In this document: in pieces, positions 872-59,044 of the stretch
Position numbering within the stretch: position 1 is the stretch's first letter
Layout: each line of letters starts with the position of its first letter
IMG/VR virus record: IMGVR_UViG_3300032167_005013
DNA: 64,000 nt
Source of the DNA: a virus
Lineage: Duplodnaviria; Heunggongvirae; Uroviricota; Caudoviricetes
Direction: 5' to 3' (one strand)
Notes under the pieces: model-generated
Seen by the model: the letters and a program-made list of their open reading frames with translations, nothing else
What the model was told of the DNA's origin: nothing
Database searches by the model: none
Program-made: the position numbers and the translations under genes

Positions 872-1285
872 ATGTTTTTTATGAAAACGGGAAGAGAATA
901 TATACAAGAAATGGTTGACAAGCTCGTTAAAGAAGCGATTAACGAGACTTTTCTTGGGGAAAAAGAGAAAGAAGGCAAAAAAATCAAATATCAGGACGAT
1001 GATAAATCAAAAGATGACGATTGGAGAGATAACCGCAAGAAAGAGAATAAAATCGCGGATGCCGCTTCAAAACGTGCACGTGTAATTCAATGGCTTAAAG
1101 ACGATTCAGTTAATTGTGCTGAAATTATGCGTAAACTTTGGAGGCCTTCAAAGAAAAAAGAGGATGCTGCAAGAAGTTATTTCTACAAATGTCGTGATGG
1201 AGAACTTAATGATACCGGAGTGCCATATTCATTTTCAGACAACGACATCAACAGGTTATATTCAATTAAGAATAATATGCTATAA
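872..1285 (+). CDS. hypothetical protein rich in K, D and E
   Basis: 137-aa ORF with an ATG start, followed by a strong terminator. Confidence 0.5.
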   Translation: MFFMKTGREYIQEMVDKLVKEAINETFLGEKEKEGKKIKYQDDDKSKDDDWRDNRKKENKIADAASKRARVIQWLKDDSVNCAEIMRKLWRPSKKKEDAARSYFYKCRDGELNDTGVPYSFSDNDINRLYSIKNNML

Positions 1286-1290: not shown

Positions 1291-1319
1291 AAGGGAGCAA
1301 CATTGCTCCCTTCTTTTTT
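1291..1319. terminator. bidirectional rho-independent terminator (aagggagcaacattgctccctt + T-run)
   Basis: perfect hairpin with a T-run; it sits between the convergent genes 872..1285 (+) and 1318..2178 (-). Confidence 0.6.
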
Positions 1320-2178
1320 AAATAGCCTTCTTCTTATAATAAGAATCATACCTACTACGCAATTTCTCGCATATCGAAGTTTTAAGTTGGCGTATTCTTT
1401 CCTTAGTCATACCCATTTCATCAGCGACATTTTCCATGTCCTTTTCCTCACATCCAATTCCAAACAGTGGCTTTATCACCTTTTGCTCTTTTTCAGTAAG
1501 CCCACTCAACATAAGACTAACAAGAGCCTCATTATATTCGGCAGTCACTGTTTTCTCATAATCGTTATATGAGGATGTTGCGTTGTTGAACTCAGGTGAG
1601 TCCTCAAAAAAAGATTCGCCGTCATCCAATGTTGAATTGATTGAACTATATGCAATGTCATATAAGTCACCAACATTTTTAATGGTCAACCCATAAACAT
1701 TTTTAAGTTCCTCAAGAAGTTCATCTGTGGTTGGATAACGCCCATTCAAAAGGAAAAACTCATTCTTCAACTTATTAGCCTTGCTATAAGTCTTATAATA
1801 GTTTGTTTTCTTAATCGGCTGATGCTCATTAAGTATATATTTGTTAAGGCGTTCTTTCATCCAAAAATTAGCATATGAACAAAGTCTGAAGCCTCTCGTA
1901 ACATCAAACCTGTTTATTGCCTCAATGAAACCGTCATTAGCCACATTTACAAGGTCAGTGACATTTTTACCATTGGAATACTGTCGGGCAAAAGAGAAAA
2001 TATATCTCTGATGTGACATAACAAGTTTATCCATTGCAGCCTGTTCACCTTCCTGTGCACGTGTTATGAGTTCAATTTCCTCTTCAGCGGAAATCAGTTC
2101 ATAATTCTTAATATCATCAAAGTAACGATGTAGATTGTTCGTTCTCTCAACCTCTTTTACAAATACACTTTTAATCAT
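1318..2178 (-). CDS. RNA polymerase sigma-70 family factor
   Basis: region 4 helix-turn-helix MGMTKERIRQLKTSICEKLR; region 2-like LCSYANFWMKERLNKYIL; 286 aa. Confidence 0.6.
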   Translation of the reverse strand: MIKSVFVKEVERTNNLHRYFDDIKNYELISAEEEIELITRAQEGEQAAMDKLVMSHQRYIFSFARQYSNGKNVTDLVNVANDGFIEAINRFDVTRGFRLCSYANFWMKERLNKYILNEHQPIKKTNYYKTYSKANKLKNEFFLLNGRYPTTDELLEELKNVYGLTIKNVGDLYDIAYSSINSTLDDGESFFEDSPEFNNATSSYNDYEKTVTAEYNEALVSLMLSGLTEKEQKVIKPLFGIGCEEKDMENVADEMGMTKERIRQLKTSICEKLRSRYDSYYKKKAI

Positions 2179-2202: not shown

Positions 2203-2245
2203 TAAGTTTTCTTATCTTACCGCAAATACCATACCAAAAAGGTAA
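2203..2245 (-). promoter_or_regulatory. promoter and 5'UTR block upstream of the sigma factor gene; the same block recurs at 29371-29406
   Basis: about 36-nt near-identical block agttttcttatcttacYgcaaataccRtRccaaa at both sites; contains TTTGG...TATTTGC on the coding strand. Confidence 0.45.
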
Positions 2246-2270: not shown

Positions 2271-2603
2271 TTAAAGTTCACCACGAAGATATTCTTCAAG
2301 TCCCACATTTGCGAGGGCTTCCAAGGCAACTCTACCTCCATCAAGGTCATGATTTCCACACTTCTTGCAAGGATTCTTAAGAGCCATAGGCTTCAGCTTA
2401 ATTGTCTCCACTTCAAAACCTTCAGGGAGCGCAGCCAACATCTTCTCGTATGCAGGCTTAAGTACCGCTTCATTAACACAAACATAGCCGTTTTCCTCTC
2501 TGCGAGACCAAAGGCAATTAATGCACATCTTCTTTAAACCATATGCGTTAGGGCACTTACCCTCTACAAGTTCGCTTCCGCAAATAACACAAAATTCACT
2601 CAT
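2271..2603 (-). CDS. Zn-ribbon protein (several CxxC pairs)
   Basis: CVICGSELVEGKCP ... CINC ... CKKCGNH in 110 aa. Confidence 0.5.
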   Translation of the reverse strand: MSEFCVICGSELVEGKCPNAYGLKKMCINCLWSRREENGYVCVNEAVLKPAYEKMLAALPEGFEVETIKLKPMALKNPCKKCGNHDLDGGRVALEALANVGLEEYLRGEL

Positions 2604-2750: not shown

Positions 2751-3173
2751 TCATAAGTATAACACTTTTATTTCCAAATTATTCATGTTTTTTAAAAATC
2801 TATCACTTTCTTCAATCGCCAATTTTATTCGTTCAGTTTTTTCATTACATAATAGTAAAATATTATATTGTGTTTGTAAAATATTTTTACATTTCACTGT
2901 CAATTCTTTTACTTTTTGCTCATTAACAAATTCACTAAATACGGATAAAATTATATTTTCAGCAATTTCAATATCAGAGTCGCCATCCTCTTTAGCATAT
3001 TTTTTAACAATATTAATGCCATTCAAAATATATTCTTCACATTCTGATATAATGCTTTCGCATAAAGCAATATTGTCTACAATAAAACGGCCTTCAGAGT
3101 CTGCAATAATTCCATGTTTATTAAACATAAAGGCATGATATCCATGGCATTTCACATAATATTTTTTCTCCAT
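2751..3173 (-). CDS. hypothetical protein
   Basis: 140-aa ORF with the duplicated promoter and 5'UTR block upstream. Confidence 0.5.
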   Translation of the reverse strand: MEKKYYVKCHGYHAFMFNKHGIIADSEGRFIVDNIALCESIISECEEYILNGINIVKKYAKEDGDSDIEIAENIILSVFSEFVNEQKVKELTVKCKNILQTQYNILLLCNEKTERIKLAIEESDRFLKNMNNLEIKVLYL

Positions 3174-8590: not shown

Positions 8591-9022
8591 ATGTGGGGAA
8601 TTTTAAAACAAATATTCTTTATTATATGGCAGTTACCACAGGTACTTGTCGCATTGGTAATGTGGCCATTTCTTGGAAAGAAAAAACTGATTAGAAAAGA
8701 AAACTACTGTTGGATTTATGAATGTGAGGCGATGAGAGGTGGTATTTCTTTGGGTTGTTTCATTTATCTTTCCCCAAGTTGCGCCAAAAGAGAAACAACA
8801 ATACGCCATGAATTGGGACATGTAAAACAAAGCCATTACCTTGGGGTTTTATACTTGCTTATTATAGGCCTCCCAAGTATATTATGGGCTTGGTTAGGAG
8901 ATGACAATAAATGCTATTTTTCGTTCTACACAGAATCTTGGGCAAATAAACTTATGGAGTTGGAAGTTCGAAGTAACGGACGAAGATGTTATCTCTATCT
9001 ACCAAAAGAAAAGGATGCTTAA
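8591..9022 (+). CDS. membrane protein with an HExxH zinc-metallopeptidase motif
   Basis: N-terminal hydrophobic segment plus HELGHVKQSH; the only plus-strand gene within the first 14 kb of minus-strand genes. Confidence 0.4.
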   Translation: MWGILKQIFFIIWQLPQVLVALVMWPFLGKKKLIRKENYCWIYECEAMRGGISLGCFIYLSPSCAKRETTIRHELGHVKQSHYLGVLYLLIIGLPSILWAWLGDDNKCYFSFYTESWANKLMELEVRSNGRRCYLYLPKEKDA

Positions 9023-14115: not shown

Positions 14116-14805
14116 TTAATATATAAACCAAGTTATACGTATGTCAGTCGCCTTAAGACATCCATATTGCTGTTCAACCAAAGTACGAATTCGACAGATT
14201 TCTCCATAAATCCTAAGAAGAAAATTGAATTTTTCCTTGAAAACATATTCATTGAAATTATCATCACCAGTTTCCTCATCATATATATGAAAACCAATAT
14301 TTTGAAGAAGCCTGTCAAGTTTCCAATTTATATCCTTAAGTTCGTCAGCCTTCATTAATCTCGGCACTGTATCCAAGAAATGTTCTTTCATTTCCCCATA
14401 TGCCCCAAGAAGGTCAATAAGATAAAAATAAGAAGGTATTGATGCATTGGACGCATAATCATTATATTTTTTTACCAATTCAGGTGAAGCATCCTTAGGC
14501 ATGCCAAGGTCTGATTCAATATATCCAAAATTATATTCTTTATTCAATAGGAAATCCTGAATTTCATAATCCTCCATAAAATGAGTCGTATCCTCAATAT
14601 ACCCAAATTCAATTGGCTCCTCACCCTCATCAAGATACTCTTTCGACATTTTCCAAGTAAGGTCTTTAGGAAATGCCCCATCTGCCTCGCAAGCAAGGTA
14701 ATCATCACGACGAAACTTTCTAAGGAGTTCCCATTTTCCACCATTACGGACCTCAATCATTGATACAACATATGTACTCATAAAACCAAATAATTTTTGT
14801 TGCAA
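14116..14805 (-). CDS. hypothetical protein
   Basis: 229-aa ORF. Confidence 0.45.
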   Translation of the reverse strand: MQQKLFGFMSTYVVSMIEVRNGGKWELLRKFRRDDYLACEADGAFPKDLTWKMSKEYLDEGEEPIEFGYIEDTTHFMEDYEIQDFLLNKEYNFGYIESDLGMPKDASPELVKKYNDYASNASIPSYFYLIDLLGAYGEMKEHFLDTVPRLMKADELKDINWKLDRLLQNIGFHIYDEETGDDNFNEYVFKEKFNFLLRIYGEICRIRTLVEQQYGCLKATDIRITWFIY

Positions 14806-14946: not shown

Positions 14947-15570
14947 ATGGCGACGGATAATAGTAATGCTATATACACAGCAGGAGAAATGCAAAATACA
15001 GGGAAGTTCAGTTTCAACACAACGAACATCAATAACGCATCATACATACCAAGTTTAGATATGTGTCCAACAAAAGCCCAAATTACTGCAGCAGCAAAAA
15101 CCGGTTATACTTTAACAATTTCAACAGCCTATAATGCTAAACAACTTGTACCAAGCAAAGATTGGTCTATGACAAAAAACATTGGTAAACTAACAATTCA
15201 TTTTTATACTAGTGCGTTAACATCAAACACAGTATTAAATGGATGGAGATATACAACTTCAACCCTCCCCTCGTTAAAATATAGCTCATTGGAAACAGGT
15301 ACATCTATTTTTTATTGTTCACCAGGTACTTTAAACTCAACTTATACCACAGGTGCGACATTAACCCTTAACACAAGCAAACACAGTACATGGCCAATAG
15401 GTTCTTACCTCTGTTATCTCGTATACATTTGTACAACTCAGACTGGTTATGCTGTATTATCTGGATATTATGAACCATCGGAAGCAAGTCAGTTAAATTC
15501 AGGAACTAACGTTGAAGCACTTAGGAACTGGTCAATACAAACCTTTACTTTTCAAGAATTTTATAGTTAA
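14947..15570 (+). CDS. Ser/Thr-rich hypothetical protein
   Basis: 207-aa ORF with an ATG start, between the operator-like palindrome and a strong terminator. Confidence 0.5.
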   Translation: MATDNSNAIYTAGEMQNTGKFSFNTTNINNASYIPSLDMCPTKAQITAAAKTGYTLTISTAYNAKQLVPSKDWSMTKNIGKLTIHFYTSALTSNTVLNGWRYTTSTLPSLKYSSLETGTSIFYCSPGTLNSTYTTGATLTLNTSKHSTWPIGSYLCYLVYICTTQTGYAVLSGYYEPSEASQLNSGTNVEALRNWSIQTFTFQEFYS

Positions 15571-36951: not shown

Positions 36952-37461
36952 TCAATATGTGCCGCAATCAACTTCATCATAGGTCCTGATTTGGCCATTC
37001 ACAATCAGATATGATTTATAATCTCTGTTTTTAACTCTGACTGACATGCCATCTTCAAAACGTTTTGTTTTTGTTGTCTGAGAATATCCTGTATCGTCCC
37101 TCTCTACCCCAATCTCAACAATATAATATGTTGCGGAGGTTATTCCGTTGGCATCTTCACCAACGAGGTAACGGTCACCCGGATTCAACATGCTGGGTAA
37201 TGCGGACACAATATCAATAACAGGTAAAAGTTGCCCAGTTGGTTCTGTTATAAGATTATCACCGAAATACTCTCTCCAAGTGATAACTCCCGTTTCCGAA
37301 TCAACCGACTTTACTGAATATCGGGTCCAATAATCCAACATATTAGCCTTAGCCAATAAATTATACCCTTCCTCAGTACCTCTCCAAAATTTTACCATGT
37401 TTTTGTTTTCTGCCATTTTGCCCAAAAACTTACTCGTTTTTATTAATGGCCATCCCCCCAT
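36952..37461 (-). CDS. hypothetical protein, possibly structural or fibre-associated (start may instead be ATG 37413)
   Basis: 169-aa ORF whose ATG lies inside the C10/G6 hairpin. Confidence 0.35.
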   Translation of the reverse strand: MGGWPLIKTSKFLGKMAENKNMVKFWRGTEEGYNLLAKANMLDYWTRYSVKSVDSETGVITWREYFGDNLITEPTGQLLPVIDIVSALPSMLNPGDRYLVGEDANGITSATYYIVEIGVERDDTGYSQTTKTKRFEDGMSVRVKNRDYKSYLIVNGQIRTYDEVDCGTY

Positions 37462-37475: not shown

Positions 37476-37485
37476 GGGGGGGGGG
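37476..37485. repeat. G10 homopolymer tract (pairs with the C6 run at 37454-37459 to form a hairpin over the start codon of 36952..37461)
   Basis: gggggggggg in an otherwise AT-rich genome. Confidence 0.8.
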
Positions 37486-42580: not shown

Positions 42581-43546
42581 TTATGCGTATTTGATTATAT
42601 AAGTTATTGAATCTTCTGGAATATCAATCACAGCCTCAGGAACTGCAGGGTCATAGACAGCAGAAAGTTCTGTGTCGTTAGCCGTCTTATACCATACATG
42701 GTAAGCAACGCCATCAATTATTGCATCATGCTCCCTTTTATTCCATCCTTCAATAACAGAATCGTTTGTGGAAGCAGCCAGAATATCAACAACCTCACGG
42801 TCAGTGATGATTATAATATCCTGAGCATTATTAAGAAGAACCTCAGTTATTTCAGCAGGGGACATTTCTGCAAGACCCTCTATTGCAATAGGTTCAATAT
42901 CAGCAACAAATGTCTCAGTTGCACTTTCACTCTCCATTGTTATGCTATCTATAACAGATATTGCATCAAAAATTTCTTCATCTGTCATAGTATCAATATG
43001 CCCTTTCATGGCTGCAATTTGATATGCAACTGGGAAAACTACCGGTGCATTAAGTGTTATCTGATACTTAAATTCCTCATCCTGATAAGTTTTCTTACCT
43101 GCAAGGGCATCGGTTTCAGAACCACCAATACCATAGTTTTCAATAGAGGCAATATCCCCAAGCCCGAATTGAATTCCTGAAGCGCCTGAAGTTCCTTTCT
43201 CTATTTTAACAGTGTATTGTTCATCACCATTGTAAGAAATTGCCACATACATATCAGAAGCAGTCGTTCCCGCAAACATAACAACAGCGTCACCATTCAC
43301 TATCTCAAGTGACATTGCCTTGGTTTGTATTGTAGGCGTTGTATCTCCGGTATTAGAATCAGAACCGGAACCTGAACCACTACCGTTGGTAATAAAAATA
43401 GTTTTTGAATATTCTTCTCCCGGAAGGTTGCAAAGGTCAATATATGCACCATTCCAATAATGACGTTCCTCTATCCTGTTATCACCCTCCCAAAGTTCAC
43501 CGTTTGGGCCGATTGAATTTTCACGTATATCTCCTAAGTAACTCAT
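42581..43546 (-). CDS. tail or baseplate-associated protein with a GSGSGSGS linker
   Basis: 321 aa; translationally coupled to the downstream fibre gene. Confidence 0.4.
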   Translation of the reverse strand: MSYLGDIRENSIGPNGELWEGDNRIEERHYWNGAYIDLCNLPGEEYSKTIFITNGSGSGSGSDSNTGDTTPTIQTKAMSLEIVNGDAVVMFAGTTASDMYVAISYNGDEQYTVKIEKGTSGASGIQFGLGDIASIENYGIGGSETDALAGKKTYQDEEFKYQITLNAPVVFPVAYQIAAMKGHIDTMTDEEIFDAISVIDSITMESESATETFVADIEPIAIEGLAEMSPAEITEVLLNNAQDIIIITDREVVDILAASTNDSVIEGWNKREHDAIIDGVAYHVWYKTANDTELSAVYDPAVPEAVIDIPEDSITYIIKYA

Positions 43547-43664
43547 GGTATACTAATTTAATTTCTTATAAATAGGTAAAAGACTAAGAAAAAGAAGCCT
43601 CTCTTATGAAAAATCCAAAAGAAAGACTTCGTGCAAAAATATATCAAGATTGACTGTAGGTTTC

Positions 43665-44480: not shown

Positions 44481-44540
44481 TCAACATCTTTTAAAGAAAA
44501 ATAAGTTAAAAAAGTTTAAAAGTAAAGTTGTTAGTATCAA

Positions 44541-44572
44541 AATTTATCACTATATTTGCAACAAATATTTTT
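44541..44572 (+). promoter_or_regulatory. promoter box ttatcaCTATATTTGCaacaaatat (a near-identical copy is upstream of the primase gene at 36860-36890 on the minus strand)
   Basis: TAnnTTTG consensus 16 nt upstream of ATG 44576. Confidence 0.45.
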
Positions 44573-44575: not shown

Positions 44576-44989
44576 ATGACAATTGACATTGAAAATAAAT
44601 TACATAATGACATAAAAGAATATTGTAGAATGAATGGTTTGGTGATGAAAGATTTTGTCAACAAACTTCTTAAAAAATCATTTACTGTAGAAAAATATGG
44701 GGAAACCCCATTTGGGGAGGTTTCATTAAAACCTAAAATTCATAATACTGAAGTAGACGGGCGTTTTTCTGATGTCCAATCAACCACAATACTCCACGAG
44801 CGAAACAATTCAATAAGTCAAACTGAAGTGGTGGAAAAAAAAATTCAAATTGTAGACGAACCTAAAACCATTTTTAATGATGATTGTGATATTGAACGTT
44901 ACAAAGGAGAGGTCCCGAAAAATTATTATGAAGAAATAAAAGTAACCCAAAAACAAACGGAAAAAAAAAGTAAAAAACGTAAATTATAA
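44576..44989 (+). CDS. hypothetical protein with a Lys-rich C-terminus
   Basis: ORF-track start is TTG at 44528; ATG at 44576. Confidence 0.4.
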   Translation: MTIDIENKLHNDIKEYCRMNGLVMKDFVNKLLKKSFTVEKYGETPFGEVSLKPKIHNTEVDGRFSDVQSTTILHERNNSISQTEVVEKKIQIVDEPKTIFNDDCDIERYKGEVPKNYYEEIKVTQKQTEKKSKKRKL

Positions 44990-44994: not shown

Positions 44995-47385
44995 ATGGCT
45001 AAAGATTTGAAAATTGGCGAAAACGCCAAAATAACAATTGAATGGAAAGTGCTTCCTGTTGATTTTTCAAAGGAAAAAGAAGAAAGTATCAGAGAAAACG
45101 TCGCAAAGAAATACGGTGTTCCATCAAAGAATGTAGAAATTGTTCCTATTTTTATCTCCTTAAATAATAAAGGAGAAAAGGTTGCATTGACCAATGACAC
45201 AATACAAAACATTCAGGACCCTAAATTTCAACAGCAACTTTTCCAAGCATATCTTGATGAAAACAATATCGAGGATTATGATTTTAATGAAATCATTAAA
45301 ATCGACAGTCATATTAACTCCCTCATAGATTATGAGGTATATGATAAGTTCAAGAGATATGAAATCAAGTGGTTAAAGTGGTCAAATTTCCTTTCTTATG
45401 GAGATGATAACTTTTTTGATTTTACAACTTTGAATGGTTTGGTTCTTCTTAATGGTGAACCTGCTAATCAGAGCGGTAAATCTACTTTTGCATATGACCT
45501 TCTTCATTTCGTACTCTTTGGTAAGACAACCTCGGGTAAGGCTGACGACCTTGCAGGTATCTTTAATAGATATCGTCCGGAAACAACAGAAGTTAAGGTT
45601 GAAGGTTGTATTGAAATAGACGGTGAAGATTATATCATTAGGCGCACACTTACTCGCCCCGCACATAAAAGACGTACAGCAAAAAGCAAGGTTACGCAGA
45701 AGGTGGAATATTTCAAAGTCGTCAACGGTGAAGAACAGGTTCTTGACGATATTGAAAACATGGAAGGTGAGAATAATGTTCAAACAACTAAAATCATTAA
45801 AGAGGCTATTGGTAACGAAAAAGATTTTGACCTCGTAATTTGTGCTAATTCCGACAATCTTAAGTCTTTAATTTCCCTTAAGGATACTGAAAGGGGGCGT
45901 CTTCTTTCTAAATGGATTGGTCTTCTACCTCTTGAGGAAAAAGATGCCATCGCACGTGAGAAGTGGAATAAAGAAATATCAAAGTCACTTCTTTCCAACA
46001 TATATAGTCGTGAAGTGTTGAAAACTGAAATTGATGCATTTAATCTCTCTATCGAAGATAATAGTAAAAGAATTGATGAGACTAAAGTAAAACACACTGA
46101 CTCTACCAAGAGATGCGATGAATTGGCTAAACAAAAAGAAGCACTTCTTTCAGCCAAGAGAGAAGTTGACTCCTCCCTTACCAAAGTAGATGTGCATACA
46201 ATTGAGCGTCAAATTGAAGATGTCACTGAGAAAGGAAAACAGACAAAGGCATTAATGGATAAAACGAAAAACGACCTTGATGCAATTGCTAATGTTGAAT
46301 TCTCCGAAAACGAATATCAGGACCTGCAAAATAAAAGGGAAAATCTTGCTGTTGAAATAAACGGTATTAAAAATACAATACGTCAACTCCGCGAGACAAA
46401 TAAAAATCTCGCTGCTTCAGAGTATTGCCCCACATGTAAAAGAAAACTTGAAGGGGTTAATTATAGCGCAACAATTGCAGAAAACGAAGAAAAAATTAAA
46501 ACTCTTATCAGTGATGGGGAGAAAAAGAACGGGAAATTAAACGAAATTAAGGAAAATATCGTTAAAATGGACGAAAATCGTCGTCTTTTTAATGAAAAAA
46601 GTCGTTTATCAATACTTATTGATAAGTATGATGCTGATTTAAAGGTTCTTAGACTTAAACTTAAAGACCTCAGGCAGACAATGAAAGCCCTTGAAGACAA
46701 TAAGGCTGTAATTGAAGCGAATAATAAGATAGAAAATTCACTTAATGTCCTTAATGTTTCATTAAAAACTGAAGAGGGTATTAGAGATAATCTTCTCCTT
46801 CAAATAAATGGCCTTGAAAATGAAAATAAAACTCTTCAAGACAACATTAAAAATAGAGAAAACATAATTTCTCAGATTGACAATGAGGAAAAAATTGTCA
46901 AGACGTGGAAAATATATCTCACTCTTGTTGGTAAGAATGGTATTGGAAAAATGGTTTTACGTCAGGCTCTACCTCTGATAAACGGAGAACTTAAACGTCT
47001 TCTCTCAGGAGTTTGTGATTTTGATGTTGAAGTTGTCATTGACGACCACAATGATGTTGCGTTTAATCTTGTAAGAAATAACACCGTTACAAAATTGTCA
47101 GGTGGTTCAGGATTTGAACAGACTGCAGCGGCATTGGCTTTGAGAGTTGTTCTTGGGAACATTTCGACATTAAGCCGTCCGTCAATTCTTCTTCTTGATG
47201 AGGTACTTGGTGGTGTAGCACAGGAAAACTATGAAAATATCAAACTTTTGTTTGACCGTATAGTAAAAGATTATAGTGTTGTCCTCCACATAACCCACCT
47301 TAATCAGATTATAGATTGGCACACGTCAATCATAACGGTAAGAAAAGAGAATCAGATATCGTCAATTAGCCAAAAGGCTGTTTAA
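44995..47385 (+). CDS. sbcC: SbcC/Rad50-family ATPase
   Basis: Walker A NGEPANQSGKST; long coiled coil; signature LSGGSGFEQ; Walker B ILLLDEVLGG; H-loop HITH. Confidence 0.7.
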   Translation: MAKDLKIGENAKITIEWKVLPVDFSKEKEESIRENVAKKYGVPSKNVEIVPIFISLNNKGEKVALTNDTIQNIQDPKFQQQLFQAYLDENNIEDYDFNEIIKIDSHINSLIDYEVYDKFKRYEIKWLKWSNFLSYGDDNFFDFTTLNGLVLLNGEPANQSGKSTFAYDLLHFVLFGKTTSGKADDLAGIFNRYRPETTEVKVEGCIEIDGEDYIIRRTLTRPAHKRRTAKSKVTQKVEYFKVVNGEEQVLDDIENMEGENNVQTTKIIKEAIGNEKDFDLVICANSDNLKSLISLKDTERGRLLSKWIGLLPLEEKDAIAREKWNKEISKSLLSNIYSREVLKTEIDAFNLSIEDNSKRIDETKVKHTDSTKRCDELAKQKEALLSAKREVDSSLTKVDVHTIERQIEDVTEKGKQTKALMDKTKNDLDAIANVEFSENEYQDLQNKRENLAVEINGIKNTIRQLRETNKNLAASEYCPTCKRKLEGVNYSATIAENEEKIKTLISDGEKKNGKLNEIKENIVKMDENRRLFNEKSRLSILIDKYDADLKVLRLKLKDLRQTMKALEDNKAVIEANNKIENSLNVLNVSLKTEEGIRDNLLLQINGLENENKTLQDNIKNRENIISQIDNEEKIVKTWKIYLTLVGKNGIGKMVLRQALPLINGELKRLLSGVCDFDVEVVIDDHNDVAFNLVRNNTVTKLSGGSGFEQTAAALALRVVLGNISTLSRPSILLLDEVLGGVAQENYENIKLLFDRIVKDYSVVLHITHLNQIIDWHTSIITVRKENQISSISQKAV

Positions 47386-47411: not shown

Positions 47412-48125
47412 ATGTTAAAAGATTTTAATAATATCTATGACGTAAACGCAGGATATTATTTTAAAGACATAACAAACACTAAGCCCTTAACAAGGGCTGA
47501 AGAAAGAAGACTCTCAAAAAGATGGAGAGAAAAAAAAGATGTAAATGCACGAAATAAGTTGGTTCAATCAAATCTGAAATTCGCTGCAAATATTGCGAAA
47601 AATTATAAAGGGCTTGGATTATCATATTCTGATTTAATTCAAGAAGCGAATGCAGGGCTTTTTAAGGCTGCAGATAAATTTGAACCTGAACTTGGTAATA
47701 AATTTATATCTTATGCAGTAAATTGGATTAGGGAGTCGATATTATCAGCCCTTAAGAAAAGAAATTCTCTCCCCTCAGAAGAATTGCCTGTTGAATACAA
47801 TGAATTGGAAACCTATGAGGAGGCTGATTACATTGATGAAAAAATGAGTGATGATATCTACATTGAAGATAACTCTGAATCTGAAAGAGAAAAGGATATT
47901 AATACAGTTGTAAACCTTCTCTTAAAAGATTTAACCCCAAGAGAACAATTCATTGTTACTAAATATAGCGGCATTGGTGAACGCAAGCCTAAAACATTAG
48001 AAGAAATTGGAAATGAATTGGGATTAACTAAAGAACGAGTTAGACAGATATATGAAAAAGCAATGAAAAAACTACGTGTTTCGGCACTTGAGAATTGCTT
48101 TTCTAAAGATATTTATAAAAGATAA
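47412..48125 (+). CDS. RNA polymerase sigma-70 family factor (second copy)
   Basis: region 2 FISYAVNWIRESI; region 4 LEEIGNELGLTKERVRQIYEKAMKKLR. Confidence 0.65.
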   Translation: MLKDFNNIYDVNAGYYFKDITNTKPLTRAEERRLSKRWREKKDVNARNKLVQSNLKFAANIAKNYKGLGLSYSDLIQEANAGLFKAADKFEPELGNKFISYAVNWIRESILSALKKRNSLPSEELPVEYNELETYEEADYIDEKMSDDIYIEDNSESEREKDINTVVNLLLKDLTPREQFIVTKYSGIGERKPKTLEEIGNELGLTKERVRQIYEKAMKKLRVSALENCFSKDIYKR

Positions 48126-48139
48126 ATTTTGTTTTGAAA

Positions 48140-48502
48140 ATGGTTAAAAAGAGTACAAAGACAACTGAAACCCCTGAGGTTCAGTCTGAGGTGACATTAA
48201 TGGAACAGCAGATACAAACTGAAATTGAAACGCAAGTTGAAAATGAAATTTCAGACATAAAAGAACAGATGGAAAACCTGCAACCTGCAGAAAATGTTAT
48301 TGAAACAATTATGGCTTCAGAACCGGAGGAAGTTGAAGAAATTATTGACAATGAGTTAAAAAAAGTAGATGAACTCGTTGCAACAGTAGCGGAAAAAATT
48401 AACGAGATGGAAGAAAAATATCCTGAAATCACAAAAGTTGTTGAGAAGGTTAAGAAAGCGAATCCTCGTTTTACTAACGTTTGGAATGGCATAGCATATT
48501 AA
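48140..48502 (+). CDS. highly acidic Glu-rich protein
   Basis: 120 aa, immediately downstream of the sigma factor gene. Confidence 0.45.
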   Translation: MVKKSTKTTETPEVQSEVTLMEQQIQTEIETQVENEISDIKEQMENLQPAENVIETIMASEPEEVEEIIDNELKKVDELVATVAEKINEMEEKYPEITKVVEKVKKANPRFTNVWNGIAY

Positions 48503-48516: not shown

Positions 48517-49029
48517 ATGGCAAAAAGTAGTTATTCAACCGCATGTGATATGCTTGATGCTATACGTCGCGGAATTGTAGAAAATACGGAGGCAAAAAAA
48601 GGACTCATCAAGGAAGAGGCTGAGGCACAAACAATTGAAAGTGCGATTGCAATAACCGATGACCCTAAATTCGGTGATAATGTTCTGACAAACCAAATGA
48701 ATCAGTTCTTATCTTCAGTTGATAGTGGTGCACAGTTTACTAAGCCAAATGAAGAAAATCCTGCAGATAGTCCACTTATCTATATGCCTGAAACCGGTAA
48801 TATGGTTTTTTCTGGAACAATACCAAGCCTTAATAATTTAAAATGGCAGTTTGTGTTGAAAAATAACACAGGCGATGGTTGTTTCATGTGGGCCGATGGT
48901 TTAATTCTTAATAAAGAAAACTTAAAGACTCTCAATAAGTTAATGGGATTTTATAATAATTGGAAAACCCAATGGCAAACATCCGCTAAAGAATTGGAAC
49001 AACTTGAAAATCTTGTTAGGAAAAATTAA
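48517..49029 (+). CDS. hypothetical protein
   Basis: start moved to an ATG. Confidence 0.4.
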   Translation: MAKSSYSTACDMLDAIRRGIVENTEAKKGLIKEEAEAQTIESAIAITDDPKFGDNVLTNQMNQFLSSVDSGAQFTKPNEENPADSPLIYMPETGNMVFSGTIPSLNNLKWQFVLKNNTGDGCFMWADGLILNKENLKTLNKLMGFYNNWKTQWQTSAKELEQLENLVRKN

Positions 49030-49034: not shown

Positions 49035-49066
49035 AAAAACCACTCAGAAATGAGTGGTTTTTTAGT
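49035..49066 (+). terminator. terminator (aaaaaccactcagaaatgagtggttttt)
   Basis: perfect hairpin with a T-run. Confidence 0.6.
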
Positions 49067-49102
49067 TTTATATTGCTATTTATCAGTAATAGAAAAAGAT
49101 AA

Positions 49103-49282
49103 ATGAAAAACTGTAAAAAACATATAAGAGAGGAGTTCGACAGAGATGATGTCATGCAGTTAATCAAGCGTGATAAAGAATTTGAAAAACGAATCAAAGA
49201 AATCACAACTGATGTGGTTACTGACCTCTTTCGTGTGCTTTGGCAAAGGAAATCTTCTTACGAATCAGAACTTAAGAGATAA
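49103..49282 (+). CDS. possible small basic protein (59 aa, below the ORF-track cutoff)
   Basis: ATG-initiated ORF in an otherwise empty 220-nt gap. Confidence 0.2.
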   Translation: MKNCKKHIREEFDRDDVMQLIKRDKEFEKRIKEITTDVVTDLFRVLWQRKSSYESELKR

Positions 49283-49288
49283 TAAAAC

Positions 49289-49915
49289 ATGAGAACCATA
49301 CTTATAAATGAGTCTCAGGTTAATGCCTTGAGAAAAAATATTGAGATGATTAATGAGGAAGTCACCTTCTTCAGTTTCATGTCTCATATCAAGGCGTATC
49401 TAAAACAACTTTTAACCGACCCCATATATGCAAAACCCGATGCTTTTCTTATTGCTAATGGGTTAGATGGTGAAAAAGCATTATCATTGCTTATTGATAA
49501 CGGGGTTATTATTAAAGATGAAAAAATCGACAGTTCAGGGGATAAAGACCAATTTACAATTTCATACAAAATCCCTCGTCAGAACTTTGAAAGAAAAATC
49601 AAAAGGCTTTATACTAAACTATTTGAAATCAACATCGCTGATGGTTGTGTAATTAATGAGGAGGATGGCGGTGCAACATCTGCAGATGCTTCAGGTGCTT
49701 TTGAACAGCCTCTTTTTGGTAAACCACTCAGGCGAAAAACAATTTACGTCACACAAGAACAATATGACAGGCTCCAAGCATTGAAAGAGGAGGCTGTAAT
49801 GGATACTGCAATAGGTGATTTCGGTTATGATGCTCCACCTTTTGAAAAGGATGATGACCCTACATACAATCATAAGGACTTGATTAAAACTTCTGTGGAG
49901 GACGGTAAAAAATGA
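49289..49915 (+). CDS. hypothetical protein
   Basis: 208-aa ORF. Confidence 0.45.
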   Translation: MRTILINESQVNALRKNIEMINEEVTFFSFMSHIKAYLKQLLTDPIYAKPDAFLIANGLDGEKALSLLIDNGVIIKDEKIDSSGDKDQFTISYKIPRQNFERKIKRLYTKLFEINIADGCVINEEDGGATSADASGAFEQPLFGKPLRRKTIYVTQEQYDRLQALKEEAVMDTAIGDFGYDAPPFEKDDDPTYNHKDLIKTSVEDGKK

Positions 49916-50106
49916 CACGATTTGACTATTATTCCAATATAAATCCTGATGCAGCAAAAAAAATAATGAAAATTGCTGAGGAACTTGAGGATGAAAAGCA
50001 ACAAATCATTCCCGATGAAGAAAAAATGAAAAAATTGGTTTACAGACAATTTATGGCGGGAATGGAAATAAACACAGGACAAGGTAGAAACTATAAATTA
50101 TATTAA
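49912..50106 (+). CDS. hypothetical small protein
   Basis: 64-aa ORF, start overlaps the upstream stop (ATGA). Confidence 0.35.
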   Translation: MTRFDYYSNINPDAAKKIMKIAEELEDEKQQIIPDEEKMKKLVYRQFMAGMEINTGQGRNYKLY

Positions 50107-50116
50107 ACTATAAACA

Positions 50117-50932
50117 ATGGACAAAAGTATTACAGTAGGAAGGATGAGAGAACTCATCAAGGAAAGTCAAGGCCAATTCAATCCTGTAATTGGAGATGGC
50201 GTTGAGAGCGAAAACAAGAAAAACAATGAAAAGTCCTACAAAGATGCCAAAACCAAAACTGACGCAAAAGAGGTGAAAGTTAAACATGATGTTCCTAAAA
50301 AGGAAGATAAAAACAAAACAACCCTCGATTACACATTCAATTCTGACCCGGGTAAAGAATATAAAGAAAGGGTTCACGCGCAAGCCAAAGGTTATACAAG
50401 CAAGGCTGAAGAAGAGAATGACATTGAAAAAAATGCTGAATTTGGTGATGATTTTTATAAAGTGGCAAAAGAGGCAGGACAGGAACTTCATCAGAAGGAA
50501 GAAGACTTGAAAAAATCAGGGTTACAGGCTCGTGAACTTCCTGACGGAACATTCAAAAAGGAAGACATGTATGAAGAAAAAAGTGTCAAAACCGTGAGAT
50601 TCAAAAGGACTGAATTCCTTACTGAAGAACACATGATGTCAAAGATTCCTGATGAAATGAAAATTGAAGGACGACGTTTCAGGATGAAGGATATGAATGA
50701 CCAAACATATCTTCTCGAATGGACTAAAAATCAGTACAGTGGTAAAGAAAGTGCTGTCATTCTTGAACACACTAATGAAAAGAAAGTTAACGAAAGTATT
50801 GAACGCATGAAAGCACTGTATGGTTTCAAATTGGGTGAAAAAACAACAAGAACAACTTCACAAGGAAGGATGTATGAAAATAATGATGGGGTGCGTGAAA
50901 CCCTGAATAATATAAGAAATTATAAGAAATAA
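50117..50932 (+). CDS. Lys/Glu-rich hypothetical protein
   Basis: 271-aa ORF. Confidence 0.45.
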   Translation: MDKSITVGRMRELIKESQGQFNPVIGDGVESENKKNNEKSYKDAKTKTDAKEVKVKHDVPKKEDKNKTTLDYTFNSDPGKEYKERVHAQAKGYTSKAEEENDIEKNAEFGDDFYKVAKEAGQELHQKEEDLKKSGLQARELPDGTFKKEDMYEEKSVKTVRFKRTEFLTEEHMMSKIPDEMKIEGRRFRMKDMNDQTYLLEWTKNQYSGKESAVILEHTNEKKVNESIERMKALYGFKLGEKTTRTTSQGRMYENNDGVRETLNNIRNYKK

Positions 50933-50940
50933 GGGTTATC

Positions 50941-51645
50941 ATGGAAGAAAAGATTGACAAAGGGTTAAATTGGTTTGAGAAAGCACTGCAGATTGTTGAG
51001 AAATACAAATTCAAGACAATTTTTAAGGCAGTTATCTATATATTGATTATTGCAGCAACAATAGGCTTCATTAAAAACCCAACATGGATTTTCGAACAAT
51101 ATCAAACTTGGTTGGACAAACAACATGAGGTGGCAATGATTGACCGTGAACATATTGATATGAAAATTCACACAATTATAGAAAAACTGAACTTTAAAAC
51201 AAATAGTGCACGTGTCTTTATTCTCGAATATCATAATGGTACTGAAAGTGTAACGGGTCTCCCTTTTCGTAAATGTTCTGCAACTTATGAAGCAATAAAT
51301 GTTGGCGTCATGCCCATTGCCCATGATTATGCTGAAATCAATTTAAGTTTAATGCCATTTGCAAGCCACATGGCGACAACAGGATATTGGTGTGGGGATA
51401 TTCATGATATGGAAGACATTGACCGCTCATTCTGTTATAGACTTAAGGCAAGCGGCGTAGAGCATTTTACGGCTGTCACCATTGAAGGTGTAGATAAACC
51501 TCTTGCGCTTCTGATTGTTTCCTATGATGAAAGATACATTGACCATAACTGTGATGAAGTAAGAGAAAATATTAGACACTGCGCTCTTGAACTCTCCCTT
51601 TTGTTTGAAATCAACCAACAATACGGTGAACGAATTAAAATATAA
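50941..51645 (+). CDS. membrane-anchored hypothetical protein
   Basis: N-terminal transmembrane segment IYILIIAATIGF. Confidence 0.45.
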   Translation: MEEKIDKGLNWFEKALQIVEKYKFKTIFKAVIYILIIAATIGFIKNPTWIFEQYQTWLDKQHEVAMIDREHIDMKIHTIIEKLNFKTNSARVFILEYHNGTESVTGLPFRKCSATYEAINVGVMPIAHDYAEINLSLMPFASHMATTGYWCGDIHDMEDIDRSFCYRLKASGVEHFTAVTIEGVDKPLALLIVSYDERYIDHNCDEVRENIRHCALELSLLFEINQQYGERIKI

Positions 51646-51662: not shown

Positions 51663-51694
51663 AAAAAGGCGGTTTAAAACCGCCTTTTTCTTTT
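51663..51694 (+). terminator. terminator (aaaaaggcggtttaaaaccgccttttt)
   Basis: perfect hairpin with a T-run. Confidence 0.6.
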
Positions 51695-51731
51695 AATTAT
51701 TCTCCTATTTATTGTTATAAAACTAAAAAAT

Positions 51732-52268
51732 ATGGCTAACGCTGAAAAATTAATGCCACTTATATTGAAATGGGAAGGTGGATATTCTCACCATCCTTCA
51801 GATAAGGGTAGGTGTACCATGAAAGGGATAACAATCGGAACCTATCAAAAATTCTACGGTTATTCAAAAACATGCACCGACCTTAAATGTATTACTGATG
51901 ATGAATGGCTTGCAATTTTCAAAAATGGATATTGGGACCCCATGTGTGGAGATTCCATTAAAAACCAAAGCATTGCTAATATTATTGTAGATTGGGCGTG
52001 GATGAGCGGTGTTAAAACAGTGTCAAAAAAAATACAGAAAATATTAGGCGTCAAAGATGATGGGATTGTAGGACCAATTACAATGTCATCATTAAATTCA
52101 ATGGAACAGAAACCTTTGTTCGATAAGATTTACAAAGAGCGCGAAAACTTCTATTATAATATATGCAAAAATAACCCAAGTCAAGAGGTTTTCCTAAAAG
52201 GATGGTTAAATAGACTTGCTGATTATACATTCGAGGAAGAAATCCCCGAAGAAAAAAAAAATAACTGA
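51732..52268 (+). CDS. endolysin: GH108 lysozyme-like domain plus a PG_binding_3-like C-terminus
   Basis: ILKWEGGYSHHPSDKGRCTMKGITIGTY matches the GH108 N-terminal signature (EGGY...D.GG.T..GIT). Confidence 0.65.
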   Translation: MANAEKLMPLILKWEGGYSHHPSDKGRCTMKGITIGTYQKFYGYSKTCTDLKCITDDEWLAIFKNGYWDPMCGDSIKNQSIANIIVDWAWMSGVKTVSKKIQKILGVKDDGIVGPITMSSLNSMEQKPLFDKIYKERENFYYNICKNNPSQEVFLKGWLNRLADYTFEEEIPEEKKNN

Positions 52269-54738: not shown

Positions 54739-56685
54739 TTAAAGTGCTATCATTTTAGTCCACTTAGCGAAATTGTGTTGAATTTCAAGCAAATAATTTG
54801 TATTAGTTTCCAAATCAGCAATCGGAATATTTGATAAAATTATATCTGCAGGAAGGGATATTGTTCCAAATGTATCACTTGTCTTGAACAGAACTGAATA
54901 ACGATAAGCAACCTCGCCCTCAGTTTCCTCATAAGTTAATGTTAAATTGGATACCGGTTCCTCAATAACATGCAATGTATTTGGTTTAATTGTAAGAGTA
55001 CCCTCCACCGGAACTGTTGTGTCTATAGCCCAATTCACCTGTGAATTAATATCATTAAGGGATGCTGTCATTGCAATAACAGTTGCCCCAAGAGTATTCT
55101 CAATTTTCCTCACAGCAGTATTGACGTTATCCCCCATTACAATTGAATCCATTGTATAAGATGCTTCTTCAAGAGTTTCATCAAGAACAATATCCTTGCC
55201 TTCAAGAACAACGCCATTTTCTTGGGAAATTGTATAACCATTTACGGTATATGCATCAATAGCCTCAGTCTTTTCATTGAAAGCTTTTCCCTGTTCCTCA
55301 ATTTTATCAGCAAGAACCTTAAGTTCATCCTGAGTACCGTCAGCAGATACTATATATGAAAGTTTTCCTTCACCTTCAACAAGATAAAATCCCTCAAGGT
55401 AAACAACCTCATTATACTCCGAATCCTTCTTGGTCTTAAAAATTTGTCCTACATTGTTTGCGGTGGCACGTTGAACTGCAGTGGCATAATTCTCAACTTC
55501 CTGAGGTTTTAAATTATTCATATTCAATTTCAACGAGGAAGTTTCGCCACTTATTGCCGAAATACTATCCGTATTACCTGATACTGTTTCTGAAAGACTT
55601 GCCAATTCCTCACTATATCCTGATACAACCATTGAAAGGTTCGCCAATTCTTCTGTATTACCTGATACTGTTTCTGAAAGACTTGCCAATTCTTCTGTGT
55701 GGCCACTAATTGTATCAGTAATTACCGATAAAATATTTTCAATCTCAGATATGCGTGTTTTAAACGTTTCAGCAATAACAAGACTACCATTTTCATCAAA
55801 TGCAAGAATAGTTTCATTTTCACCTAACCTAATTCCAATAATTTGGTTTTCTAAAGAAATGCCATCCCCCGAAGAGTATTGTTCAGTAAACATCTCTGAA
55901 ACGTCAACCATAATATCCTCTTTTTGGGCGGCTTCAGTAAATGTCAACACAAGGTATTTTACCCCATCAACCTCATCAATATAAACATTTTCAACTCTTC
56001 CATCAGCAACGCCTTCAATGTTATCAACAGAAACAGTAAATGCAACAGTCTTATCAGTAACCGGAAGTTCCTCACCATTTACAATGATTTTTTCAATAAC
56101 GTTAGCCTGAGCATTGGTTTCAATGCCCTGAAGTTTTGTGATATCTGAATCTGAAACAAGTGAGTAACCACTTTTAATATCAACTTTTTTATCAAGTTCA
56201 GAATTTAATTCCCCAACGCTTATTTTCAACCCTGCAATCTCAGTATCCACATCAGCATCACCGGAAGCAAGTGACATTGAAAGTTTCATGAGTTCACCTT
56301 CACCTATAACAATATAAGGCCCTGTGTAATATGTTTGATTGTCATATACACTATCGTTCTTAACGAATATAATTTGTCCAAGATTTTCGGCAGATGCTTC
56401 AATAACTGCGTCTTTATATTCCTCTACTGCAAGTGAACCGTTTCCGGATATTTTTACAACATCCCCCAATGTATTTTTAATGTATATGCTTGGGTCATTC
56501 GCATTATTGTTAATAACAAGAATACCTTTATTGAGTTCCAATTGTTCTGTTTTAAGAACATCATATAGAGGATGGTCAGGCTGAACGTCTATGAAAAATT
56601 TTGCAAGTTCATTATTAATTTCAGTCTGAGTTGTTCCCGTAACACGGTTTACATGGCCGTGCACAATGTTTCTATTATTTGCCAT
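54739..56685 (-). CDS. tail fibre protein with two copies of the GSLAVEEYKDAV-type domain and in-frame 28-aa tandem repeats
   Basis: shares a domain with 37503..39551; internal repeats VSGNTEELANLS... appear three times. Confidence 0.6.
   Translation of the reverse strand: MANNRNIVHGHVNRVTGTTQTEINNELAKFFIDVQPDHPLYDVLKTEQLELNKGILVINNNANDPSIYIKNTLGDVVKISGNGSLAVEEYKDAVIEASAENLGQIIFVKNDSVYDNQTYYTGPYIVIGEGELMKLSMSLASGDADVDTEIAGLKISVGELNSELDKKVDIKSGYSLVSDSDITKLQGIETNAQANVIEKIIVNGEELPVTDKTVAFTVSVDNIEGVADGRVENVYIDEVDGVKYLVLTFTEAAQKEDIMVDVSEMFTEQYSSGDGISLENQIIGIRLGENETILAFDENGSLVIAETFKTRISEIENILSVITDTISGHTEELASLSETVSGNTEELANLSMVVSGYSEELASLSETVSGNTDSISAISGETSSLKLNMNNLKPQEVENYATAVQRATANNVGQIFKTKKDSEYNEVVYLEGFYLVEGEGKLSYIVSADGTQDELKVLADKIEEQGKAFNEKTEAIDAYTVNGYTISQENGVVLEGKDIVLDETLEEASYTMDSIVMGDNVNTAVRKIENTLGATVIAMTASLNDINSQVNWAIDTTVPVEGTLTIKPNTLHVIEEPVSNLTLTYEETEGEVAYRYSVLFKTSDTFGTISLPADIILSNIPIADLETNTNYLLEIQHNFAKWTKMIAL
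55528..55720 (-). repeat. about three 84-nt in-frame tandem repeats inside the fibre gene (an exact 38-nt core at 55571-55608 and 55655-55692)
   Basis: seen in sequence. Confidence 0.7.
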
Positions 56686-56737
56686 TGATTATAACCTTTT
56701 TAATTATCTATAAATAGTTAAAATACATGTAAAAAAC

Positions 56738-58502: not shown

Positions 58503-58994
58503 TTATATTTCATATAATTTCCAATCAATAGAATCCTTAACTACCCAACCTTCATTCAATACCGTTTGGATATGAGCGATTGCCCCCATATAAAATTCCT
58601 GAAGTTCATTCAGGTCTTCAAAAACATGATATTCAGGAGAAGTTGTTTCACCGAACTTAAACTTTAAAGGGAGTGTTGCACCATTAGTCTGCACTGCAAG
58701 GTCATATGCTGCCTTATAATTAAACTGATTTTCAGAAGAAAGCCATATATTATATCCTTTCCATTGATAACCATCTAATATATTTTCTTCAACCTTGGTA
58801 TTGTAATAAGAGATGATAATATCCTTGATTTCAGATTCGCTTGGTTTATGATTAAAACAGAATTCTTCCCAAATCCCAAGATTAGTTTCCTTACCGTTCT
58901 TGAAAATTGGCTGATAATCCCATGCTACGATATACTTGTTTTTACCAACAACTTTAATTGGCTTGTATTCGTTCTTTCTGTTCTTAATTTTCAT
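58503..58994 (-). CDS. hypothetical protein
   Basis: 163-aa ORF. Confidence 0.45.
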   Translation of the reverse strand: MKIKNRKNEYKPIKVVGKNKYIVAWDYQPIFKNGKETNLGIWEEFCFNHKPSESEIKDIIISYYNTKVEENILDGYQWKGYNIWLSSENQFNYKAAYDLAVQTNGATLPLKFKFGETTSPEYHVFEDLNELQEFYMGAIAHIQTVLNEGWVVKDSIDWKLYEI

Positions 58995-59007
58995 ATCAAC
59001 AATAAAT

Positions 59008-59044
59008 AGTTATTAGAAACCGGATATTTTACAATCCGGTTTCA
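59008..59044. terminator. hairpin gaaaccggatattttacaatccggtttc followed by a T-run on the plus strand
   Basis: seen in sequence; the neighbouring genes are on the minus strand, so its role is unclear. Confidence 0.35.

Follow-up and report, generated by a model that had tools for sequence, protein, structure and literature searches.

We analysed a window of 64,000 nucleotides (nt) from the Caudoviricetes record IMGVR_UViG_3300032167_005013, together with 10 kb beyond its left end, out of a genome of roughly 0.3–0.4 Mb. The window encodes two sigma factors of the sigma-70 family that differ in architecture, here termed Sig1 and Sig2. The Sig2 gene is followed, in an order conserved among related phages, by genes for a small acidic protein and a 170-amino-acid protein (p170), and three classes of promoter-like motif occupy defined positions between the genes. 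From this arrangement we infer a transcriptional cascade, to which we give about an even chance and in which Sig2 is the favoured candidate for recognition of the late promoters.

Two sigma factors of different architecture

The initial annotation of the window, made from the sequence alone, had assigned open reading frames (ORFs) at 1318..2178 and 47412..48125 to the sigma-70 family and had pointed to a shared core in region 4, TKER(I/V)RQ. Both ORFs are present, and the encoded proteins passed the Pfam gathering scores for regions 2, 4 and 1.2; the profile search for regions 2 and 4, which had been set beforehand as the check, supported both regions in both proteins. The region 4 core reads TKERVRQ in Sig2 and TKERIRQ in Sig1.

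Sig2 (237 amino acids; 47412..48125, plus strand) was characterized by Pfam, NCBIfam, PHROG and PDB alignments. It matched the Pfam model for region 2 (PF04542, Sigma70_r2) with 57.7 bits against a cut-off of 24 at residues 50–118, that for region 4 (PF04545, Sigma70_r4) with 50.5 bits against a cut-off of 24.1 at residues 170–222, and that for region 1.2 (Sigma70_r1_2) with 25.5 bits, above the gathering score, at residues 16–40. The recognition helix of region 4 is TKERVRQI. The sole Pfam match for region 3 reached 15.4 bits (cut-off, 25.3) and was located within region 4. In the PDB alignments, Sig2 aligned to RpoS and SigA in two pieces, regions 1.2–2.4, with region 2 matched to region 2 of both proteins, and then region 4. 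The approximately 65 residues of RpoS that form region 3 (residues ~188–252) were skipped, with a short acidic stretch in their stead. This linker, at about residues 120–165 of Sig2, occupies the place of region 3; across the Sig2 family its sequence is variable, with a median Asp plus Glu content of 35%.

Sig2 passed the NCBIfam model for the sigma70-ECF superfamily (112.5 bits; cut-off, 42.9) and fell below all NCBIfam equivalog cut-offs, the best being RpoH with 147.5 of the 323.1 bits needed. It belongs to PHROG family 351, "RNA polymerase sigma factor" (E = 2e-45). At least 570 homologous proteins were detected at E ≤ 1e-10. Among the 120 homologues listed, regions 2 and 4 were present in all, and lengths ranged from 171 to 244 amino acids, or from 227 to 244 with the exception of two truncated proteins. 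Conserved in the family are regions 1.2, 2 and 4 as well as a COOH-terminal tail, ..I-T-x-D-I-Y-K, which reads ..DIYKR in the window. By these domain matches, Sig2 is a shortened sigma-70 protein in which the acidic linker connects regions 1.2 and 2 with region 4 and region 3 is absent. The combination of regions 2 and 4 without region 3 is also that of group 4, or extracytoplasmic function (ECF), sigma factors. Unlike those proteins, however, Sig2 possesses region 1.2 and matches RpoH, RpoS, RpoD and SigA best, rather than ECF factors, and no gene for a membrane anti-sigma factor adjoins it.

Sig1 (286 amino acids; 1318..2178, minus strand), characterized with the same four resources, scored 31.2 bits for region 2, 37.9 for region 4 and 27.3 for region 1.2 in Pfam, all above the gathering scores, and 13.6 bits for region 3, below the cut-off. 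It nevertheless aligned to the RpoD, SigA and RpoS chains in a single unbroken alignment that extends from region 1.2 to region 4.2 and spans the region 3 stretch. Sig1 was likewise assigned to PHROG family 351 (E = 5e-40) and likewise remained below the NCBIfam equivalog cut-offs, the best being RpoS (124.1 bits, compared with 378.7 needed). Sig1 is, as judged from these alignments, a complete RpoD/RpoS-like sigma factor. The gene is bracketed by a terminator upstream (2270–2244, minus strand) and by a hairpin (1291..1312, plus strand) that lies between Sig1 and the convergent gene 872..1285 (plus strand), and it therefore forms a single-gene unit.

The exact Sig1 protein was present on at least 24 contigs, nine of which fall in the size class of 0.2–1 Mb; a scan of Joint Genome Institute (JGI) metagenomes with Sig1 found no relatives. 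One locus (L112, JGI 3300024270) is 100% identical to positions 1318–12178 of the window, and, given this identity and the contigs of the large size class, near-complete genomes of the phage should be retrievable. The exact protein (loci L112, L113 and L114) occurred in 38 blocks of the public collection, including nine in the 0.2–1 Mb class.

Sig1 and Sig2 are 27% identical (E = 1e-15), and approximately 50 residues of Sig1 are missing from Sig2 in their pairwise alignment. Both passed the general NCBIfam sigma-70 superfamily model and lay far below the RpoD, RpoS and RpoH cut-offs. A search of six-frame ORFs with a profile of the 120 Sig2 homologues detected no sigma-like ORFs in the window other than these two, and a phmmer search of all window ORFs with gp55 of phage T4 gave no match at E below 1. 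Both proteins would be expected, from their conserved regions, to bind the host core RNA polymerase and to direct initiation. In the alignments, both differ from housekeeping sigma factors at positions that correspond to the residues with which Escherichia coli sigma-70 recognizes the −10 element at its upstream edge.

The conserved Sig2 operon and its acidic protein

We compared the Sig2 locus among eight lineages, namely the window and seven sets of related contigs (L001/L002/L003, L006, L007, L008, L009, L010 and L011), with Sig2 identities down to approximately 50%. The order SbcC-like gene, Sig2, acidic protein, p170 was found in all eight, with gaps of a few to about 20 nt between the operon genes. 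In L007, which has different neighbouring genes and an inserted methyltransferase gene ahead of Sig2, the genes for Sig2, the acidic protein and p170 nevertheless remain contiguous.

The first gene of the operon in the window (44576..44989, plus strand) encodes a small protein with a weak Arc/ribbon-helix-helix-like match (phrog_582, E = 5.5e-4). It is followed by the gene for a 796-amino-acid SbcC/Rad50-like ATPase (44995..47385, plus strand; phrog_77, E = 2.4e-46), which lies directly 5' of Sig2, a place that is kept in all the relatives. The operon ends with p170 (48517..49029, plus strand) and is closed by an intrinsic terminator with a 12-bp stem and a T-run (49035..49062, plus strand); equivalent terminator hairpins follow the operon in L001, L006, L007, L008, L009 and L011, where the sequence beyond it was read.

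Upstream of the first gene is a candidate promoter of host type (44528..44558, plus strand), composed of TTG at 44528–44530, a spacer of 20 nt and TATATTTG at 44551–44558, 17 nt before the ATG at 44576. The published elements of promoters for the Bacteroidetes primary sigma factor are TTTG at −33 and TAnnTTTG at −7 (PMC7366714), and the candidate matches them. The same arrangement, GTAAAGTTGTT-N18–20-TAnnTTTGCA, was found in L001, L006 and L008, and the host-type promoter of the operon is kept in four of five lineages. Four further genes of the window, including that for the DNA polymerase, also have host-type matches ahead of them. These data bear on the proposal of the initial annotation that Sig1 lies in an early minus-strand block and Sig2 in a late plus-strand block. 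Operons downstream of the terminator at 49035–49062 do look late, whereas Sig2 itself belongs to an operon that also contains a recombination nuclease gene and is preceded by a host-type promoter; the late appearance is thus limited to the operons downstream.

The acidic protein (120 amino acids; 48140..48502, plus strand) is encoded directly after Sig2, with a gap of 14 nt. Its start was placed at ATG 48140 rather than at TTG 48134 because the homologues begin with MAKK. Its acidity is lower than the more than 30% Glu or Asp originally ascribed to it: 28 of 120 residues (23.3%) are Asp or Glu, with an isoelectric point (pI) of 4.35. No other window ORF of at least 100 amino acids is, however, as acidic. 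A profile search recovered 38 protein clusters of this clade-restricted family, all of 110–190 amino acids and all metagenomic, with Asp plus Glu contents of 19–31% and pI values of 4.2–4.8. The family alignment showed the MAKK start, a variable acidic NH2-terminal part, a conserved helix (NPE.AE.I.N.EL) and a COOH-terminal motif, (F/M)(T/S)(N/Y)xWNG(M/I/V)x(Y/F/L), in which WNG is invariant; the window protein reads F-T-N-x-W-N-G-I-x-Y.

Searches of Pfam, NCBIfam, PHROGs, PDB and GenBank phages gave nothing significant for the acidic protein, the PDB profile search yielding only chance-level matches. The suggestion that it is an anti-sigma factor, a co-factor or a DNA mimic received no direct support, and no similarity to gp33, AsiA or other families was detectable. 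A relationship to T4 gp33 was rejected at the level of sequence, with a probability of 0.2% in an hhalign comparison of the family alignment with gp33 and nothing from phmmer or PHROGs, and no significant match to an AsiA-type anti-sigma factor or another described polymerase-binding family was obtained in PHROGs, Pfam, NCBIfam or PDB. We also considered a clamp-binding tail shared with other proteins. The idea was rejected, as no other window protein carries a WNG-type COOH-terminus and that of the DNA polymerase is unlike it.

The third member of the conserved group, p170, is strongly conserved, with identities of 52–86% in the relatives, much above the conservation of the acidic protein. 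Its family comprises 156 cluster representatives at E ≤ 1e-3 and possesses a near-invariant block, AIAITDDPKFG ... PLIYMPETGN.VFSGTIPSLNNLKWQFVLKNNTG.GCF.WADGLILN. No match was found in Pfam, PHROGs (44 members scanned), PDB (chance level only) or GenBank phages. A few long multi-domain proteins matched p170; they look like weak repeated beta-sandwich matches and were not taken as evidence. A single-sequence structure model, with a predicted local distance difference test (pLDDT) score of 44.6, was unusable.

Promoter-like motifs, host and remaining genes

Intergenic DNA accounts for 5.0% of the window, and we compared the intergenic copies of each motif with the number expected from a uniform spread. 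TAnnTTTG occurs 87 times, with 15 intergenic copies compared with 4.4 expected; over the whole window it is not enriched (87 compared with 91.6 expected), and its count carries information only once intergenic and coding copies are separated. A scan for E. coli-type promoters remained at chance level.

The second motif, CTATTTAT, occurs 10 times, nine of them intergenic (0.5 expected). It lies 8–55 nt 5' of start codons, often directly after terminators, and forms part of a conserved box, aCTATTTAT. A second promoter class distinct from TAnnTTTG had been anticipated at late genes, and this box indeed lies ahead of the lysis cassette and of other late-looking genes. In a matrix built from 26 sites, a T-tract at −18 to −14 leads up to aA-CTATTTAT-a, and a −35 box is not clearly discernible. 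The T-tract stands about 14 nt upstream of the box, which has no TAnnTTTG; conservation of the core in this matrix is not independent evidence, because the search pattern fixed the core positions.

On the plus strand, the copy at 49076..49083 is a candidate late promoter for the operon 49103..51645 that follows the Sig2 operon, with orthologous copies in L001, L006, L008, L009 and L011, and the copy at 51705..51712 lies 19 nt before the endolysin gene (51732..52268) and directly after a terminator (51663–51689), with orthologous copies in L001, L006 and L008. On the minus strand, copies precede the genes for a 321-amino-acid protein (copy at 43568..43575, gene at 42581..43546; orthologous in L001, L006, L008 and L011), a 648-amino-acid protein (56710..56717, gene at 54739..56685) and a 163-amino-acid protein (59002..59009, gene at 58503..58994). 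The motif was also found ahead of genes 872..1285, 8591..9022 and 14947..15570. It is kept at orthologous sites before the endolysin gene, the gene for a 59-amino-acid protein and that for the 321-amino-acid protein.

A similar box, ATATTTAT (48109..48116, plus strand), is embedded in the last codons of Sig2, GAT ATT TAT (D-I-Y), at a distance of 23 nt from the downstream start codon (ATG) of the acidic protein gene. All eight lineages use these same three codons, whereas codon choice varies at other invariant Ile and Asp positions. Among 74 invariant amino acid columns with degenerate codons, six keep the same codon in the eight lineages, and the three outside D-I-Y are tyrosine. The codon identity makes the 3' end of Sig2 a candidate site for an internal promoter and suggests, as a lead, that the embedded box functions as one.

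A run of ten G residues (37476–37485) lies just upstream of gene 36952..37461; in the relatives, runs of 9–11 G directly precede CTATTTAT boxes (L002, ~9955 and ~11435) and could be slippage-prone tracts beside promoters. A palindrome, TTGATTTATAACTATTTATAGTTATAAATCAA, located within 14860–14920 between the divergent genes 14116..14805 and 14947..15570, represents a CTAT(T/A)3ATAG box on both strands.

The third motif, TGGYAY-N5-TTGY, has 10 copies in the window, compared with 1.35 in shuffled sequence, and seven of these are intergenic (0.5 expected). Its spacing is exactly that of the −24/−12 elements recognized by sigma-54 (core, TGGCAC-N5-TTGC). The full core is matched at 29389–29403, and five of the seven intergenic copies carry TTGT in place of TTGC. 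The copies that precede transcription units (TTTGGYAYGRTWTTTGY; 819-833, 2222-2236, 2639-2653, 3209-3223, 25892-25906, 29389-29403 and 31111-31125) are all on the minus strand, ahead of Sig1 and six other units, at a distance of 30–46 nt for Sig1 and several small genes. The copy before Sig1, TGGTATGGTATTTGC (2222..2236, minus strand), lies 43 nt 5' of the gene and directly after the terminator 2270–2244; as a candidate promoter it is the most unexpected item of the locus. Two more sites were found to the left of the window, within the adjoining 10 kb (L112, ~16262 and ~19880), and the GAFTGA signature of enhancer-binding proteins was not found in the window. A 20-mer form of the motif is also present on IMG/VR phage contigs (L094–L111) that are unrelated to the phage studied here, a distribution more in keeping with a general consensus than with a lineage-specific signal.

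In one of these IMG/VR families, the 20-mer lies about 30 nt upstream of a TTGACA...TATATA promoter, and L103 (56% G+C) contains relaxed copies of it, 12 in all, several of which are closely arrayed (8325–8423). Within the window, an identical 49-nt cassette composed of the motif, a leader and the start codon occurs at 2601–2649 and 3171–3219, ahead of genes 2271..2603 and 2751..3173.

The window is part of a jumbo phage genome, and the host most likely belongs to gut or rumen Bacteroidales. Homologues of Sig2 are located on metagenomic contigs of up to 366–376 kb, which makes this a jumbo phage lineage, and related contigs reach 315–376 kb. Only five of 81 window genes have Shine-Dalgarno 5-mers, and the closest genomic relatives of a TnpB-like gene (44–50% identity) belong to deer- and horse-derived genomes of Bacteroidales and Paludibacteraceae. 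Together with the intergenic enrichment of TAnnTTTG, these features suggest that Bacteroidales are the host. No close relatives were detected in DNA and protein searches of 50,697 GenBank phage records, which returned only sigma factors at up to about 34% identity; an IMG/VR pattern scan with Sig2 found no relatives, and an Rfam scan gave no matches.

The coding content of the window includes a DNA polymerase, a primase, an exonuclease, a methyltransferase and an endolysin in addition to the SbcC-like ATPase. The TnpB-like transposase gene (29672-30847, minus strand; PHROG 506, E = 2e-42) has an upstream gap of 366 nt (30848–31213) that contains a hairpin, and beyond it lies the gene for an SPFH/flotillin-like protein (31214-32773, minus strand; Band_7, E = 3e-22). 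A protein of 1644 amino acids with BspA-type leucine-rich repeats is encoded at 59053-63987 (minus strand; E = 3e-31). A 208-amino-acid protein (49289-49915, plus strand) corresponds to orthologues of 389–915 amino acids in the relatives (L008, 11705–14452; L011, 7135–8304). The longer orthologues carry an ART-PolyVal ADP-ribosyltransferase domain between two homologous ends, and the version in the window is without this domain. Phage T4 modifies the host polymerase with ADP-ribosyltransferases.

A proposed sigma cascade and its alternatives

In the cascade outlined above, the host primary sigma factor would transcribe the replication genes and the Sig2 operon from host-type promoters. A phage sigma factor would then steer the host core polymerase to CTATTTAT promoters and so turn on the late genes, a set that would comprise the lysis genes and several large unannotated genes. 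We favour Sig2 for this step because of its position, because a box is embedded in its gene and because every relative examined has both Sig2 and the motif. The embedded box might lead to higher levels of p170 and the acidic protein during the late stage, and the acidic protein might dock through its COOH-terminal aromatic motif onto Sig2, the polymerase or p170. Reprogramming of the host polymerase is a reasonable model, given that regions 2 and 4 and the second motif class were supported, that a scan of part of the window ORFs, large ones among them, disclosed no RNA polymerase gene, and that jumbo phages lacking their own RNA polymerase encode sigma factors (PMC7824862). The temporal reprogramming by two phage sigma factors that was originally proposed stands to this extent; we infer which factor would act at which promoter, and in which order.

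Several observations weigh against this model. Nothing ties Sig2 rather than Sig1 to CTATTTAT, and the box resembles a −10-only promoter, yet the TKERVRQI helix in region 4 of Sig2 looks competent for −35 recognition. A gp55-like minimal sigma factor, additional sigma factors or a phage polymerase could be encoded outside the 64 kb and the adjoining 10 kb. We had already seen the pattern when we made the argument from codon identity for the embedded box. Conserved gene order extends well beyond Sig2 and the acidic protein gene, which renders their adjacency weak evidence of a functional link. The acidic protein is without similarity to any known transcription factor, and its AlphaFold2 model, based on a 24-sequence alignment, was all-helical with low confidence (pLDDT, 58), too poor a model, like that of p170, for comparison of folds. 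Small acidic helical proteins are, moreover, typical of scaffolding proteins.

The acidic protein, perhaps with p170, might instead be an abundant late protein with a structural or assembly role, for example as a scaffold or chaperone, and have no part in transcription, a possibility that we take seriously while leaning against it. It is small, acidic and predicted to be all-helical, as are many phage scaffolding proteins; a CTATTTAT-like box of its own points to strong late expression; it gave weak PHROG matches to tail and virion proteins (E of about 1e-3); and the conservation of the wider gene order is also compatible with such a role. The weak matches are, however, of the kind that coiled-coil sequences give, no capsid, portal or protease gene was found near Sig2 and the acidic protein gene, and in L007 the Sig2, acidic protein and p170 genes stay together despite different flanks. 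That the acidic protein is instead a partner that docks via its invariant COOH-terminal aromatic motif on Sig2, the polymerase or p170 has, in our estimation, about one chance in three, and a late assembly protein unrelated to transcription is about as likely.

The promoters might also be divided between the two phage factors in the opposite way, with Sig1 reading CTATTTAT and Sig2 serving another class, such as TAnnTTTG middle promoters after inactivation of the host sigma factor. Such a division would fit with the deviation of both proteins at the positions assigned to the −10 upstream edge, with the separately regulated unit in which Sig1 resides and with the presence of the exact Sig1 protein on many contigs. 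We nevertheless consider it unlikely, given that several CTATTTAT operons in a row follow directly on the Sig2 operon, that the Sig2 gene itself contains a CTATTTAT-like box, and that the Sig2 family and the box co-occur in every relative examined.

It also seems improbable that CTATTTAT is read by an outside factor, either a minimal sigma factor of the T4 gp55 type or a phage polymerase, with both RpoD-like sigma factors acting earlier. The box, at 8–9 bp, of −10 type and without a clear −35 partner, is formally like T4 late promoters (PMC2988020), group 2 jumbo phages have been reported to possess both minimal and RpoD-like sigma factors (PMC7824862), and the sequence analysed covers less than a quarter of the genome. 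On the other hand, the window contains no gp55-like or gp33-like ORF, the large ORFs scanned gave no polymerase-like match, and the core TATTTAT differs from the T4 late box. Least likely of all, and to our mind very doubtful, is that the acidic protein is an inhibitor, either an anti-sigma factor directed at the host primary sigma factor or a DNA mimic that blocks the host polymerase or restriction enzymes: although the family keeps its acidity (pI 4.2–4.8) and the gene is co-transcribed with a sigma factor from an early-type promoter, no AsiA-type or other family match was found in PHROGs, Pfam, NCBIfam or PDB, an Asp plus Glu content of 23% is only moderate, and the conserved part is the hydrophobic COOH-terminal motif, the acidic part being the most variable region.

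The cascade with Sig2 at the late promoters can be set beside three described systems. The Bacillus phage SPO1 redirects the host polymerase with successive sigma factors (gp28, then gp33 plus gp34), the late sigma factor working with a small accessory protein encoded alongside it; SPO1 differs from the phage studied here in host phylum and in promoter types. Late transcription in T4 depends on the minimal sigma factor gp55 and the beta-flap co-activator gp33, tethered to the gp45 sliding clamp (PMC2988020). As in T4, the present phage appears, from its sequence, to make a sigma factor early or in the middle period and to possess short late boxes of −10 type and a small acidic protein. T4 gp33 (112 amino acids, 20.5% Asp plus Glu) resembles the acidic protein in layout, both having a variable NH2-terminal third and a conserved hydrophobic COOH-terminal tail, without sequence similarity. 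Sig2 retains region 4, so that a stand-in for this region is not obviously needed, and T4 genes 55 and 33 lie far apart, whereas the Sig2 and acidic protein genes are adjacent. Group 2 jumbo phages (Iyer et al. 2021), which have no RNA polymerase of their own and include the Prevotella Lak megaphages (PMC7824862), share with the present phage a very large genome, no polymerase among the proteins scanned, and RpoD-like sigma factors that are presumed to recruit the host core enzyme. On the other hand, the phage has no close GenBank relative (best identity, ~34%), and no gp33 or gp55 orthologue was found in the window.

A more far-reaching version of the model, which we regard as distinctly unlikely, is that Sig2, the WNG-tailed acidic protein and p170 constitute an undescribed three-part module for late transcription in jumbo phages of Bacteroidales, with promoters of sigma-54 type serving Sig1 and the small genes of the early block. 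The acidic protein would then be a new sigma co-factor, similar to gp33 in action, unrelated to it in origin and docking by way of the COOH-terminal aromatic motif, and a single phage would make use of three different sigma systems.

Sigma cascades of phages such as T4 and SPO1, and the sigma factors of jumbo phages without a polymerase, are already well known. What is distinctive here is a group 1-like sigma factor without region 3, a clear candidate promoter, and two conserved uncharacterised proteins that are co-transcribed with Sig2. Bacteroidales are a dominant group of gut bacteria and have an unusual primary sigma factor and unusual promoters, and the control of transcription in their phages is almost unstudied. 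The locus supplies testable parts in the form of two sigma factors of different architecture, the aCTATTTAT candidate promoter and a conserved protein pair. The sigma-54-like motif before Sig1, if functional, would be unusual for a phage. If the cascade is true, the phage would provide orthogonal pairs of sigma factor and promoter for the engineering of Bacteroides, as well as a second case, independent of that in T4, in which a sigma factor has a small acidic partner.

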